From Bdellovibrionales bacterium (GTDB taxonomy: Bacteria; Bdellovibrionota; Bdellovibrionia; Bdellovibrionales; UBA1609), in the NCBI GenBank assembly GCA_965261545.1, contig CBDHDF010000010.1:960001-1024000 (forward strand): DNA of 64,000 nucleotides, written 5' to 3'. Position numbers: made by a program. Within the stretch, counting starts at the first letter, position 1, and every line of letters begins with the position of its first letter. This document shows, piece by piece, positions 45,001 through 51,000 of the stretch.

Positions 45001-48000
45001 ACATACCTCTTAAAACCATCATGCCCTTTCCAGTAAGCAACTCTCATACCAAAACATCTCTTAAGGAATGAAATAACAGCCTCTATTCCGGCTCTCCAAT
45101 TGAGAAGATTTTTAAAGACCCAAGCACTTTTAACCATCTTTAATATTTTCATTCCTTTTTTTTCTGGGAAGCAAACATCTTTAGCCCCCATCTCTTTGGC
45201 CTCTTCAAGATTTTCTTTTGAAGCAAACCCACCATCTGCACTTACTTTTACAGGGCAAGCCCCATAGGTTTGTGTCACTGAATTCATAACTTTTAAAAAC
45301 ATATCAGAGTCTGCGGGGTTGCCATCAGGGATCTGACAATCTAAAATCATGTTGCTTTGCCCTGAGGTCAAAAAGATTTTATGCCCAAACTCGACTTCTC
45401 TTTGCCCCTTTACAATAATGTCTGTATGCGGTTCAAAGATGGATAGGACCTTTTTTTCAGAAGATACTTTTTTCCCCTCAATAACTCTTTTTTGAGTTTG
45501 AAAGATGATTTTTTCCAGGTAGAAGGCAACATTTTCTAACTGTTTTAGACTCTTTTTCAAAGCATTCATCTTCACACATTTTTGTTCTTTTTTTATCTTT
45601 CTGATGGTATCAGGTAATCCTTTGTTCAATTTGGTAGCGATTTTTAAAAGCTCCTTATAGCAAGGTAGTCTTTCCGCATCATTTTTGGAATTATTAATTT
45701 TGTAAAGCAAGGTTTTTGCTCTCTTAAGATCTTCTCTTGAAATAAGTCGCCAAAAATCTTTCATGACATTTTTACGAACTTTTTTAAATTCTCTTTCTGT
45801 AACTCTTATGCAGTCATATAAAAGCGATGCATCCGTTGGATGATGAATATTTGATCACTCATGTTGATACCCCCTTAGTAACGTAGCTTTTTAATTGATC
45901 CGGACTTAAGTTTTTTAAAGTCAGATATGGTTTTTTTCTTATCTGGAAAGAGATAAGCCTTTGTTTTCTCGTGTTTTTTGACAATGATCCTCCCTTGTTT
46001 AATATGGTGATAAATCCAATGAACTTTAACATCAATAAGTGCTGCAATTTGAGATGTTGTGAGGCTTCCCTCGACTTTGGTCGGAAAAGAGTGCTTTCGA
46101 TTCCGATAGATTTTATTGTTTAGTCTATAGGACTTCACAGTATTTCTGAGAAAAGTGGTATCCATTGGTGATCTGAATCCTTTTTGGGTCAATAGTTTGG
46201 CAATATCTTCATCAGACACCCCAAGCTTGACCTGATGCGCAATTATTTTCTTTATCGTTTCAGAAGATGACAGTTCATCAAAAGATCCAACTTTGATTGG
46301 AATGCTAGCTTCTGTTGTATCTCCTCCAATCCAAACAATTCTCAGTGCAACCATATCTCTTTTCTTTCTGTGAATGACAACCTTTTCAACCAATGTTCTA
46401 AGAATTTTCTTTTTCATGTCTTTGGTCAATATCTTATCCTCCCATAGCGAAGGTAGTTTTTGATTCAAATCTGAAAATTCTCTTTTCATTTTTTGAGAGA
46501 TCACAGTTGGAATACGCTGTTCATTCTTAACCCTCTCTAGGTGATCTTCGGCTTTTTTAAGTATTACTAAAGCCTCTTCCCATTGTGTTTCTAATTCATC
46601 TGCAACAAGTCTATTCTCAGGGTCTACTTTGCGATACCTCTTTTCTACCAGTTGAGCTTCATACCTTAAACGCTGAATTTGCTGAATGTGTGATTTGTAA
46701 ACCTCTTGGTCAATTTTTGACTTATTTTCTAAAGCCTTGGCATACAAGTCTAGCTCGACAGGGGAAAGAACCTTAAAAAAAGCGTTTACTACATAATCAT
46801 CGATTGGATCTGTAGGAATGAATTGGCAAGTAGGTTCCCGATGTTGTTGGCGTAGATAGTTGCATAAGTATCGAGTTGCTGTTTTATACTGCACTGACAT
46901 TTTGTGGCCACATTCTCCACAATAGACTATCCCATGTAAGAGGGCCTTACCAGGGCGAGGTATGCCTCTTGTTTTATTACGAGTATATTCAGTGTAGTTG
47001 TCTTTTAGAATTTCTTGTATCTTTAAGAATGTATTCCAATCGATATATTTAGGATATTTATCTTTCACAACAATTTTCCATTCATTAAGTGGAAGCTTTG
47101 TACGCTTAAGTTTTCCAGCTAAGTCTTTTCTACGGTATTCAGCTTTGCCATATACAAAAGTTCCGCTATAAGCTGGATTCTTCAAAATAGAAAGTATGGC
47201 TGCCTTGGATGTTTTTTTCCAATGAATACTTTTTACAAAATCAACTCTTGGAAGTAAGAGGTTGTTATCGTTAAAAAATCGCGACACCTTACCGGCTGAT
47301 TTCAGTTTTAAGAATATAGTAAATACTAAATTTATGCGATCTTGTAAATCTTTATTTGGATCTTTTAGCACTTTACCTTGTTCTGTTCGAATAAAACCAA
47401 CTGGTAATTTAAGAGCTAAATCTCCTCGCTTGGCTTTGTTGAGAAGACCTGCTGTTAATCTATTGCGTATCGTAAATAATTCCATTTCTGAGAGTTGACC
47501 TTTAAACCCGAGTAACATTCTTCCATTAACATTAGAAGGGTTATAAATAGACTCTCTATCAGCAATGAGGCAATTCTTAAAAGCACACAGATCAAGTAAT
47601 TGGTACCAGTCCGTACAGTTTCTAGATAGACGAGTGACATCGTACGATAGAATAATACCAATTTTTTCCAAGGTCACTTCTGCAAGGATATTCTTGAAGC
47701 CTTCTCTAAACTGTATACTACTTCCTGTGATCCCCAAATCATCATCGACAATTTCAATACTATCTTCTTGCCAACCTAATTCAGTAGCTCTTTGCCTGAG
47801 TGAGTATTGAAGGTCGAGACTTTCTTTGTTTTTGATGGCTTGCTGAGGGGTCGACTGTCTGATGTATATTATGGCTTTTCTCTTTAAGTGAATAGGTGTA
47901 ATCAATTCCGATGTTTTCATATATAATCTCCTCAATGGCTAAAGTTAAGTCTTTGATGACTTGCTTTTGAATTTCTTTTGGCAGTCTTGGCCAGACATCT

Positions 48001-51000
48001 TTTGGTGTAATTGACATAGTTGCTCTTCCAGTTGTTGAGTCAGTGAAATTAGCTCCTGAATTGCAACTATACCAAGTTTGCTTGGGGCCTGCCTATCGTA
48101 GAGATTGGGGTTCAGATTGGTAGAAGCCAATGGTATGCGTAGCGTCATGTGGTTCTTGTATTGAACAAAAGCAAAAGTAGATTTTTTCTGATTTTTAGGT
48201 ATGGAAATCACCTTGAATGACTTCCTATAAAGGGGATGGGAGGGGTCCGTGACCCTTAGCTCTCTAAAACCTCTGTCGTTGACGGGGGTATTAAGTAATG
48301 GACTCGTTTGATTTCGTCACTGTACTGTCCAATCTCATTTTCTTACACGGCTCAATCTTTTGATCTCTTGCATCTGAAACTAAAGAGGCGCTAATAATTC
48401 CCCAAGTTTCTTCACTTATTTGAACAATCAAGTCCTGTAAGGTGGAGTGAGCGTAATTTTCTTCCAATTCAAGGCCCAGAAAAGCTCTGGTGGATACTGA
48501 ATCGACAAGATTAAAGGCTAACGCACGATAGGAAAGACCTCTTATGGATTTAAGAATAGCCACCTTGAGAACTTGCTCCGATGTCATACCAATATCACCA
48601 GAATCTTTCTTTTCTTTAACAAGGTCTTCATGAACCATATGGGCAAACTCTGGATGGCGATCAATGATGTTATTAATTTGCTGCAATTCTGTACTGAGTT
48701 GGTGGTTAGGATATTGGGAAAAGAGTCCCAACTGTGTCTTCTTCAAATGGCGCATAGTCCCCCCTTTGGTGAAAGTTTCTCTTTAATTTTTATATTAACA
48801 TACGTTTTTTTGAGGGAAAAAAGTGAGCAAGGATGTCTTTTAAGAAGAAAAAAATCAGAGAGGTTCTCGGAGAACATGGATAAGAATTCTACCTCATAGA
48901 GAGGTTCCCACGCCTCCTAAAACCTACATAAAAAATAAATGAAGAATAAAATATCAAAAATTATTTCTCTGAAAAAACACGTCAAGTATTTTTTGAAGTT
49001 GATGCGCAACGTAATGTTATTTCCCTGAAGGAGGTTTGAAATCACCACGGTGGAAACACAGGTTGATCCAACTCTTCCTCTCATATCAAGTAACCAGTTG
49101 ATAGCCACATAAGTCACTGAAAGGGAGGGGCTGTGAAAGGTTCGTCAAGAGAGGGGGGGGAACTTATTTTATTTTTCCGTTTTATGTAAGTAACTGAATT
49201 TACACGGATTATGTTTGATGGACTCCATTTTAAAGCATAAAATCTAAAGGGAAGGCATGTAAATACTTAAAACTACTTAACTTTCTTCCCTGGACAGGAA
49301 CTAGCTATGGCACGAATCATGGCCATACCAGATACGCAGTCAGCTTTAGACATTGCATAGGTTAAACGAATGCCTGAATATTCAAGAACCTTATACATAC
49401 GATTTTGTTCCGAAGATATTTGGCGGATCGTTTTTGTACGATAACGAGCCAAAAGTCTAATAGAACGAATCTCACGTGGAGGAATGAAGCTAGCTCTTAG
49501 AAGACCACAAGCACCAAGCTCTGCAATCCACTGGCTATCCAACACGTCAGTTTTTTTACCAGTAATATTTTTGACATGAAAGGCATTGATAACATCTACT
49601 TCATAACCTTTTTCTGTCAAATCATCGTATAAAGAATTCCAATAAATCCCTGTGCTCTCAAAAAGAACTCTCTCAACCTTATGTGGCTTCATCCAAGAGC
49701 GCATTCTAGGAAAATTTTTTGGAAAATTCTTGAACTCTTTTGTGAAAAACTTCTTCTTACCGTCTTCCACTTTGACAATCGTACACATCAACATATGTTG
49801 ATGAACATCTATTCCACAAACAGAACTATAAATAATATCCACATGACTCCTCCTTTCTGTTAGAAAAAAAGAAGGTGATAAAACTAGAGCCTTGGGATTT
49901 TGCCATAAATTCTAAAGCGAAAATAGGTCAACTTACTATGAATCTCCGGGGTAGTTTGGACGCACGAATCCACTATCCGTTCTTCGAATTTTTTCAAATG
50001 TCCGAGTTTTTAAATCATCCTACATTACATGAAATCATACTTTTTTAACGCTCTAATCCACCTTGGTGCATTTTTTTTCACCATGAGCTTTTCATAGTCA
50101 ATTCCAGGGTCTTTGTAGGGGGTGTCATTACTTATGACTGTAAAATTGGTTACGGTAGGAATGCGTGTTGCCACGCACCCCCCGCACAGATCCGGACGTG
50201 CTCGTTAAAGCATCCGGCTCCTACTTCAGGTGGTACCGCATAGCGAACCTATCTGTTGGCCACGGGTGGCGTATGGATATACGAGGCCAGAATAGACGAA
50301 TCATTCTATCCAACCTCTTCCACGAGAATCTCCGTCCACGCTGTGAGCGTCGTCGGATGGCTTTCATCCAAGCACTCCTGATTGCGCAAATAAATTTTCG
50401 TAGGTACACCGTACTTCCTGGAACCGCAAAATAATTGAGCCAGCCTTTGATGACCAAACCCAACCACTTTGCACATTCCGCTAGGTCCCTCGTGTAGACT
50501 CGTTTTCTCAGACTCAGCTTCAGGTGCTGTAAGGTCCGGCAGACTCTCTTGGATATGGGTTTACGCCCTATCCTAAAGCCTCCTTTCCTCGTGCGCACAC
50601 AAAAGTGAGTGAATCCTAAGAAATCAAAAGTCTCGGAGTGACCAAGACCTCGTCGGCGGCAATTTGCATTTGCAAATCGACCGAACTCTATGAGGCGAGT
50701 TTTCCCCGGATGTATTTCTAGAGAAAACTCCTTAAGCCTGCGCTTCAGATCATTGAGGAAGCGTTCAGCTTCCCCCTTGTATTGAAAGCCTACGACAAAG
50801 TCATCGGCGTAGCGAACAAATATCATGTCCCCTGTGGCATGGTCCTTGCGCCATTTCTGCATCCATAAATCCAACACATAATGTAAATATATGTTGGCGA
50901 AGATAGGGGAAATATTTGAACCTTGAACGGTCCCTCTCCCTGTGTCTTCTAAGACGCCTTGAGATAGCACTCCGCACTTGAGCCACTTTTCAAAGAGACG

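Follow-up and report, generated by a model that had tools for sequence, protein, structure and literature searches.

Within the window, that is, the whole 64,000-nt stretch of DNA analysed here, a serine-recombinase element occupies positions 45850..48306 on the minus strand (plain coordinates in this text are positions in the window, while names of the type C3, C7, C10 and C11 indicate contigs of the same genome). As delimited by self-BLAST and by its junctions, the element is 2,457 bp long with one TT core counted, and an empty joint in public contigs omits exactly these 2,457 bp; the genome-wide survey's note, from which we started, had given 2,451 bp. That note had also assigned two genes to the element, in which we found three. 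Precisely, its 88-aa ORF is the 3′ part of the startless body of a 124-aa gene (gene 1), and a gene of 78 aa (gene 2) had been missed.

The recombinase gene (45875-47920, minus strand) encodes a large serine recombinase of 681 aa, as the survey had proposed, identified by Pfam matches and by invariant residues. The Resolvase, Recombinase and zinc-ribbon matches (PF00239, PF07508, PF13408) were above cut-off and in the domain order of large serine recombinases: a catalytic domain with the motif YIRQS, a recombinase domain, a four-Cys zinc ribbon, a coiled coil and a C-terminal HTH-like region. Residues Y19, R21, S23, C334, C337, C353 and C365 were invariant in 47 sequences, and no Pfam match to DUF4368 was found in the protein. 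The length of 681 aa, the catalytic domain in first position and the lack of a match to the IS607 model separate it from the IS607 family, in which a small serine transposase with an N-terminal HTH usually comes with TnpB. The element carries no DDE gene and so is not a DDE insertion sequence, and no relaxase was found among its three genes.

Gene 1 is split by integration. Its body, DUF5372-like, lies at 47945..48306 (minus strand) and would encode 124 aa once joined to its start in the circular form, whereas the start lies at the other end of the element (45852..45874, minus strand), where a putative RBS (GGGGG, 45870-45874, adjoining the recombinase stop) is followed by an ATG (45860-45862) and the first gene 1 codons. 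Among the loci of relatives described below, this ATG was at positions +11 to +9 in 83 of 83, an SD-like motif accompanied it in 79 of 83, and the frame across the circle junction was open in 81 of 83. Gene 2 (47781-48017, minus strand), with a helical N-terminal half according to its structure model, overlaps the start of the recombinase gene; its ATG was at -97 in 93/109 loci, and the overlapping frame was open for at least 130 nt in 95/109 loci, against 41.7 expected. A promoter scan remained at chance level (9 found, 9.3 expected), and no usable result for the small ORFs came from the ESM Atlas.

The element is inserted in an insertion sequence (IS) that fits the ISNCY family best, and the resulting 4.6-kb composite (44700..49301, minus strand) is flanked by the duplication TAGCTA at 44694-44699 and 49302-49307. 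As previously noted, the insert separates DUF772 from DDE_Tnp_1 (Pfam): the N-terminal part of the transposase (48291..48755, minus strand) ends in element-coded residues, and the C-terminal part is at 44934..45851 (minus strand). The interruption falls between DSTVTKS and NIHHPTD, in a motif conserved among homologues. The composite in turn splits an IS110-family transposase gene (44033..49842, minus strand; joint 44693-49302), with the Pfam domains DEDD_Tnp_IS110 and Transposase_20 on the two sides, which makes a third level of nesting. The survey had described the host as an IS5/ISNCY-like IS of about 2.16 kb: ISNCY was indeed the best assignment for each transposase half (NF033593, 103 and 258 bits when scored separately, cut-off 325), and the length came to about 2,141-2,145 bp, with inverted ends and a 6-bp TANNTA duplication. 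An intact transposase of 465 aa was not reproduced; from the ATG it measures 454 aa, in 39 copies. Across the genome we counted 47 empty IS sites and 9 filled left junctions. When truncated transposases with element-coded residues at their end were looked for, 5 proteins came up, that tail occurring only in this genome's own.

The junction 3′ of the recombinase gene (45829..45874) consists of an IS arm, the TT core (45850-45851) and an element arm running to ATACCCCC (45867-45874). The junction 5′ of the genes (48284..48329) consists of an element arm with GGGGGTAT (48284-48291), the TT core (48307-48308) and an IS arm containing GTCACTGTACT (48316-48326). GGGGGTAT and ATACCCCC are the imperfect inverted repeats that the survey had seen near the ends. 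The position of the core was set by one copy outside the IS and by 83 loci with an identical core at both ends. The survey had further noted TTTGAT at both ends; we rejected its reading as a 6-bp target duplication, because at the non-IS junction TGAT follows the TT and the target there lacks TGAT. TTTGAT is the 2-bp core TT plus a TGAT that attP and attB have in common by coincidence, and attP is a symmetric inverted repeat around the central TT.

By self-BLAST, 8 full-length copies were found in the genome at 99.8-100% identity, besides 1 split copy, 1 truncated copy and 1 orphan right end, in agreement with the approximately 10 near-identical copies first reported. Of the 10 left ends, 9 are in the ISNCY transposase gene and one is in an ordinary gene; no right end out of 10 has a non-IS junction. 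The exception, at C11:191233, corrects the claim that the element is always inside the IS: its left flank reproduces exactly a gene that is intact at C7:144073-145804, and only TT is common to the junction and this empty gene copy. Close to the core, the chromosomal site at C7:145803 agrees with the IS site in 10 of 11 bases, a match reached by 0.15% of 223,306 sampled TT sites, although the 11-mer in common is displaced by 3 bp and represents a single event. Both the filled element and the empty joint were present in public contigs (one sample, possibly the source). The circle junction was absent from the assembly and from the listed joints of 4 public contig sets, which carries no weight either way as contigs drop rare forms. 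From these sequence features we conclude that this is a cargo-less, three-gene serine-integrase element with real att sites, in line with the site-specific integrase element first suggested.

To follow the spread of the copies we considered the alleles of the IS around them. Allele 48332C was present in 5/10 filled and 3/46 empty IS copies (p=0.003) and was linked to an element haplotype (5/6 vs 0/3, p=0.048); one left-arm haplotype was common to 4/5 filled copies with matching duplications and occurred in 6/46 empties (p=0.004). Between 45371 and 45708 all four gametes occurred among the empty copies, and mismatched duplications were seen in several copies, so the copies recombine, and haplotype variety was accordingly discarded as proof of independent integrations. 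The SNP linkage supports that most copies were inherited or moved as an IS-plus-element composite, and there may have been a single founder insertion for the IS copies. The survey's view of the IS as harbour and vehicle therefore holds for the vehicle, by SNP linkage, and the IS site looks cognate; it does not hold if it means that most copies are independent integrations. Descent by transposition of the composite, which had been posed as a refutation, fits the SNP linkage, with the reservation that one copy has a non-IS left flank.

Relatives with the same layout were found at 160 loci, mostly 2,453-2,495 bp in length. We define them here as a three-gene family, not a published one, targeting the F-D motif of reverse transcriptase (RT) genes. 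The present element shares its traits: about 2.46 kb, a DUF5372-like gene split by attP, gene 2 at -97 and the attP consensus. Both ends were found at 89 loci, of which 74 are in the RT F-D motif of group II intron RT genes, 5 have that motif on one side, 1 is reversed and 9 are other (at the "other" loci L052, L085 and L135 the core is mismatched or there is an N gap); 62 further loci had one end found (46 RT, 16 other) and 9 had none. The family's insertion point is the Phe codon of the RT motif DxDIxxxFDxIxH, where the present element is not found. Secondary sites are used at 6/89 loci, and distant clades target IS66 tnpB or other recombinase genes. These targets support the survey's suggestion of a habit: the family nests in genes that serve the mobility of other elements (RT, IS66 tnpB, recombinase genes).

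The three closest relatives (71-77% identity) are available as protein sequences only; no DNA of them came from a single-protein scan of genome contigs or a subclade scan of viral contigs. Among 40 related genomes there were only weak matches (E 2e-19 or worse), 389 genomes of the class gave one match at 36%, and 400 genomes of the phylum gave none. In a quick tree the present clade sits on a long stem (0.60), as do the IS66-targeting (0.72) and recombinase-gene-targeting (0.67) clades; supported branches that include RT-targeting members lie between it and these two clades. Part of the stem length may come from low-GC composition, of which the program warned.

The relatives being nearly all in intron RT genes, the present insertion looks like a natural change of target. 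No element was found at any of the 21 RT F-D sites of this genome. On the family matrix two of these empty sites reach 28.1, which falls in the range of the family; the best-scoring RT sites of the genome lie near C11:346847 and C10:510569. The conserved CA at +14/+15 is missing from 13 of the 21, and with 9/56 IS sites and 0/21 RT sites filled, the difference in occupancy is not significant (p=0.10). The IS and chromosomal sites score -40.3 and -39.1 and both lack the D-I motif, while the scores of the 7 non-RT sites used by the family run from -12 to -27.5, with 3-4 of the 4 motif positions retained; the RT matrix on which these scores depend mixes recognition with protein-coding conservation. 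The IS site thus looks like the cognate target of the present lineage. The recombinase is 50-63% identical to RT-targeting recombinases, whose attP is near-identical. In its zinc-ribbon domain only 4 of 46 conserved positions depart from the RT-targeting consensus, which is within what RT-targeting members themselves show; the clades that target IS66 and recombinase genes depart at 14-15. Remodelling of the DNA-binding domains was not above background. The private changes include P237T, D313T, V342S and V364T.

For the gene 1 product, DUF5372 was weakly detected in 18/62 family members and not in the present protein. Its predicted fold is an SH3/KOW-like barrel plus a helix, a common barrel with fold matches at Z 4-5.5 only, and the best match to sequences of solved structures had E 0.24. 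When modelled with the recombinase, it reached a complex score of 0.71; the highest score among 3 controls was 0.00. Of the pairs used to set the mark for this score, 116/157 solved and 2/215 mismatched ones reached it, counts that hold only roughly because our own alignments were used in modelling. The runs agreed in at least 91% of contacts, and the partner pLDDT was at least 69. The model supports binding of the gene 1 product to the recombinase; it is probably a directionality factor, a kind of protein that binds the integrase and reverses the direction of recombination. Since the RBS and ATG are joined to the gene 1 body by the circle, only the circular form would yield this partner.

The ends, core, gene layout, family target, non-IS junction and SNP linkage can be read in the DNA itself, and we propose the following mechanism. 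The recombinase would cut and rejoin at the TT dinucleotide, and excision would release a 2,457-bp circle and restore the transposase gene. The circle junction would be attP, an imperfect inverted repeat of 23+2+23 bp, and in the circle the start and body of gene 1 would be united to give the putative directionality factor. From the family's usual target, the group II intron RT F-D motif, the present lineage would have shifted to the D-S-T-x4-N-I-H-H-P-T-D motif of the ISNCY transposase. Integration into the IS would have occurred once or a few times, and once into the chromosomal look-alike. Most of the approximately 10 copies would then have arisen through movement of the whole composite and recombination between repeats, with transposase presumably supplied in trans by intact IS copies (39 intact ORFs).

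We regard a lineage-specific target switch, with most copies spread by hitch-hiking in the composite IS, as moderately probable. The target may instead not have really changed, an RT-targeting element having hit a secondary site once in a very active IS, whose copies then carried it passively. Strong co-inheritance of element and IS alleles, the little-changed zinc-ribbon domain and the TT-YGAY-nnn-RTY half of the RT site retained in the IS site all agree with this, as do the family's secondary sites, one of them in an IS630 gene, and an Anabaena genome in which one element occupies an RT site as well as a non-RT one. However, the chromosomal event also bypassed the RT sites for one resembling the IS site, family off-targets keep the D-I motif that both sites here lack, and two RT sites with in-range scores are empty, so that we hold this explanation to be rather unlikely. 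It is appreciably less probable that the recombinase is a relaxed, Tn4451-like enzyme using many TT sites with a YGA half-site, the excess in the IS being due only to hitch-hiking. Two different sites are indeed used in the genome, each with one YGA half-site beside the core, like the sites of distant clades; but a single non-IS junction among the ends, a chromosomal site resembling the IS site beyond chance and the absence of DUF4368, by which the multi-targeting clade is marked (PMC10083194), speak against it.

Slightly more doubtful still is the idea that the recombinase inserted most copies independently into empty IS copies: filled copies span four left-arm haplotypes also present in empties, and a SNP 24 bp from the core has both alleles among filled and empty copies, but recombination between copies explains this variety, and the linkage tests weaken the idea, since the alleles of filled copies differ strongly from what random sampling of the empty ones would give. 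An assembly artefact, with repeats collapsed or mis-joined, could be feared in a genome so crowded with repeats, the non-IS junction being on one contig. We consider it very improbable, given copies with distinct SNPs and their own 6-bp duplications, the filled and empty forms in public contigs, the same layout at the 160 relative loci and the unlikelihood of a mis-join exactly on a 2-bp core.

Tn4451/Tn4453 (TnpX) and related serine-recombinase integrative mobilisable elements (IMEs) likewise have one large serine recombinase, 2-bp identical cores and several copies per genome (PMC5704250); they differ in that the present element lacks relaxase, cargo and DUF4368, splits a partner gene by attP and uses a defined motif in another element's gene instead of a target of low specificity. 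Gene-disrupting, site-specific large serine integrases (Bxb1, phiC31 and the target-gene clusters of Durrant et al.) have the same domain order, a 2-bp core, an inverted-repeat attP of about 48 bp and attB in a conserved coding motif, with distant recombinases sharing one target gene (PMC10083194); unlike these, the present element is only 2.46 kb, lacks phage genes and targets mobility genes. In the supplement text of that study, as far as available, reverse transcriptase, maturase and IS66 had 0 matches, and transposase targets showed no enrichment (PMC10083194). The present recombinase differs from its multi-targeting (TndX/TnpX-like) clade in lacking DUF4368 and in using two sites, the second resembling the first. 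Streptococcal IMEs in ICEs (at oriT or in ICE genes) similarly have one mobile element as landing site and vehicle, but they are equipped with mobilisation modules and, in the oriT type, with tyrosine integrases, and their hosts are ICEs instead of the introns and insertion sequences seen here (PMC5704250, PMC7563843).

Our literature searches found no description of such elements. In the mycobacteriophage BPs repressor and in archaeal SSV-type integrases attP lies inside a gene and the integration state controls the product; in the present case the enzyme is a serine recombinase, and what integration cuts off from its start is the gene for a small, predicted partner of that recombinase. The y4bA-y4bD repeat (NGRIS-4) of Sinorhizobium fredii NGR234 has a recombinase of about 690 aa and small upstream genes of the DUF5372 type. 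The likeness to it is by description, the match on one NGR234 plasmid being of only about 33% identity, and literature searches found nothing on this repeat.

The usual target of the family being the group II intron RT gene, the interest of this element lies in the change of target. Retargeting of serine integrases is a central aim of genome engineering, and here nature offers a pair, many RT-target recombinases with near-identical attP and one apparently reading a different attB, with few candidate residues, in a compact system whose likely directionality factor would be made only from the excised circle. It is possible, and we put it forward tentatively, that a widespread family of minimal serine-recombinase elements lives as a parasite in conserved coding motifs of other mobile elements and has repeatedly changed host, from intron RT to IS66 tnpB, other recombinase genes and the ISNCY transposase; the present copy would be a recent switch with few zinc-ribbon changes, and excision itself would turn on the directionality factor. 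Ecologically, the element would live as a parasite on an IS that carries it along and whose transposase gene it inactivates.

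The serine-recombinase element (45850-48306, minus strand; 2,457 bp with one TT core counted) is real; in a single public sample, which may be the source, contigs were present for the filled form as well as for the empty joint, the latter omitting 2,457 bp. Its recombinase gene (45875-47920, minus strand) encodes 681 aa with Resolvase, Recombinase and zinc-ribbon domains, as described in the genome-wide survey's note. Besides eight full-length copies, self-BLAST of the genome found one copy that two later insertions have split, one that is truncated, and an orphan right end. The host insertion sequence (IS; 44700-49301) has inverted ends and is flanked by a TANNTA duplication of 6 bp; when the two halves of its transposase were scanned separately against family models, ISNCY was the best family. 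The intact 454-aa transposase is encoded by 39 IS copies, and IS sites in the genome comprise 47 empty ones and nine filled left junctions. In the window, an IS110 gene harbours the composite of IS and element, which is flanked by a duplicated TAGCTA. Across the genome the ISNCY element (window copy 44694-49307) prefers TANNTA, forms head-to-tail tandems and has entered other repeated elements at one and the same site, in either orientation. An apparent group II intron, its ends judged by eye, lies inside the att arm of one element copy (C11:326875-318701), at the position equivalent to window 48293, 14 bp off the core.

The note had placed the element always at the same nucleotide of the IS, which was true of nine left junctions; one of ten left ends (C11:191233) lies elsewhere. 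The left flank of this copy matches C7:144073-145804 exactly; an intact gene runs on there, and TT is the sole sequence shared by the filled form and the empty C7 form. In the filled form TT is followed by TGAT, which that target does not have and which is hence part of the element, so that of the TTTGAT reported at both ends only TT is common to filled and empty forms at the non-IS site. Joined, the element ends make up a 23+2+23-bp inverted repeat with this TT at its centre, and the core, as read from these junctions, is TT. A 2-bp core is a signature of serine recombinases. It is stated for Tn4451 in PMC5704250. Since the right side of the C11:191233 copy is IS sequence, one has to suppose that repeats recombined later; the reciprocal product of this event was not found in the assembly. 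A 1.7-kb chromosomal segment is duplicated (C11:182916-191228 and C7:144073-145804); it extends between the end of a 120-copy IS and the recombinase junction.

Independent integrations into the IS are unlikely to account for most copies. Allele 48332C was present in 5/10 filled and 3/46 empty copies (p=0.003) and was linked to one element haplotype (5/6 vs 0/3, p=0.048); one haplotype was common to four of the five filled copies whose duplications match (in two, the reading spans a later insertion) and to 6/46 empties (p=0.004). These p-values are descriptive, as the copies are not independent. The allele codes for Val and is probably the older one, because homologues have Val, Ile or Met at that residue. 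From these associations, most copies would descend from one or two founders and have moved as the composite. Both 48332 alleles, 24 bp off the core, were found filled and empty, which requires a second integration, excisions, or gene conversion reaching the junction. Four left-arm haplotypes occur among filled copies; we ruled out this variety as evidence on spread, given the recombination among empty copies and the mismatched duplications of several copies.

Recombinase relatives numbered 5,516 among 8,000 scored candidates. Out of 420 loci in genome contigs and at least 579 in metagenomes we compared the best 80 each (48-63% identity), and these carry the same element, mostly 2.45-2.5 kb long with attP conserved. 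Pfam scans covering 113 and 84 flanking frames found RT_N, RVT_1 and maturase domains interrupted at one place. Among 89 loci with both ends, 74 were at the Phe codon of the group II intron reverse transcriptase (RT) motif DxDIxxx/FDxIxH, five matched on one side, one was reversed and nine were elsewhere; an RT was present in 46/62 one-end loci, and neither end was located in nine further loci. Those loci in RT sites that had a named phylum covered seven phyla. Five loci (L066, L112, L149, L164, L172) are at the same RT codon in opposite orientation with the core flipped, and in L180 and L181 the core differs between the two ends; the family core may be exchanged or mismatch-tolerant. Directly beside the first recombinase-element gene, L057, L059, L060, L063, L069 and L091 have another (zinc ribbon or DUF5372), so several such elements appear to accumulate in one RT gene. 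Seven plasmid records (44-52% identity) had the element in annotated IS66 tnpB at LLEGID (two), at the same motif reversed (one), at a similar motif (one), at the YDP motif of other recombinase genes (two) or in a transporter gene (one). L048 interrupts an IS630-type transposase; L104, L177 and L178, on two separate tree branches, have inserted into other genes for large serine recombinases, at the YDP codon.

A switch of target from the RT gene to the ISNCY transposase is likely, if by a modest margin. None of the 21 RT F-D sites of this genome carries the element. On a matrix built from 69 family RT sites (family minimum 19.2), two empty RT sites of the genome scored 28.1 and the IS site -41.3 (top 18.5% of TT sites). 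The seven non-RT sites of the family (-12 to -27.5) keep the D-I motif at 3-4 of four positions and resemble degenerate RT sites, whereas the IS site (-40.3 in this comparison) and the chromosomal site (-39.1) do not. These two share GTCACTG.ACT, matched at 10/11 bases and 3 bp farther from the core in the chromosomal site; an equally good match to the IS site (any 11-mer, offsets up to 5) occurred in 0.15% of 223,306 sampled TT sites, and microhomology does not explain it, as the motif is in the site half not retained at the junction. The IS site is the conserved motif DSTVTKS/NIHHPTD, present in homologues; its Asp probably serves as the first catalytic residue. A quick maximum-likelihood tree of 40 proteins placed the recombinase and three metagenomic relatives in a clade on a long stem (0.60), the target being read in this genome only, separate from the clades that target IS66 (0.72) and recombinase genes (0.67); RT-targeting members were on both sides of supported branches, and a FastTree tree of 165 proteins agreed. 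Against a switch, the stem may be lengthened in part by composition bias, the conserved zinc-ribbon positions are altered at 4/46, inside the range of RT members, the conserved CA at +14/+15 is missing from 13/21 RT sites, and occupancy of IS (9/56) and RT (0/21) sites gave p=0.10.

The 88-aa ORF noted earlier is present, but is only the tail of a 124-aa gene (gene 1) formed when the ends are joined, which suggests a gene built by excision. Its ATG lies at +11 to +9 of attP in 83/83 intact-core loci, this element included, with an SD-like motif ahead in 79/83 and a frame open for at least 90 aa in 81/83 (other two frames: 2 and 0). DUF5372 matched weakly in 18/62 family members and not in this gene 1. 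The predicted structure is an SH3/KOW-like barrel plus helix (mean pLDDT 75). For the 119-aa gene 1 body modelled together with recombinase residues 300-540, the complex score was 0.71 and that of the best control 0.00; in the benchmark the mark was reached by 116/157 solved and 2/215 mismatched pairs, counts that apply roughly here, as the alignments were our own. At least 91% of contacts recurred between runs (partner pLDDT at least 69), with the conserved PL residues docked on the zinc ribbon and a helix on the coiled-coil base, the place where directionality factors are reported to bind. The model supports binding of the gene 1 product to the recombinase. Gene 2 (78 aa) has its ATG at -97 in 93/109 loci, its overlap with the recombinase gene being open in 95/109 (41.7 expected), and is the other candidate for excision control.

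A second, unrelated 1.9-kb serine-recombinase element (53277-55212; 544-548 aa, near-perfect inverted ends; about ten copies in the genome) occurs at VHT/GAYK in RT genes of group II introns; further copies lie around the PQG motif of different RT genes, with a few ends elsewhere. At 50221-55950, group II intron copies are tandem and nested, some intact (494-aa RT) and one interrupted. Three single-copy large serine recombinase genes (C11:506014-507951, C11:892889-894697, C11:455392-457320; frames of 603-646 aa), one adjoining tRNA-like sequence, are probably island integrases.

PMC10083194 and PMC5704250 already describe serine integrases disrupting conserved genes, TnpX elements of low specificity, and IMEs that nest within ICEs. 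The words "transposase", "intron" and "reverse transcriptase" do not occur in the main text of PMC12884075, and a full-text literature search, with most subscription papers outside its reach, returned no description of minimal serine-recombinase elements targeting RT or IS, although recombinase databases may list members. The points of interest are a partner gene that would be built by the circle and the probable change of target.
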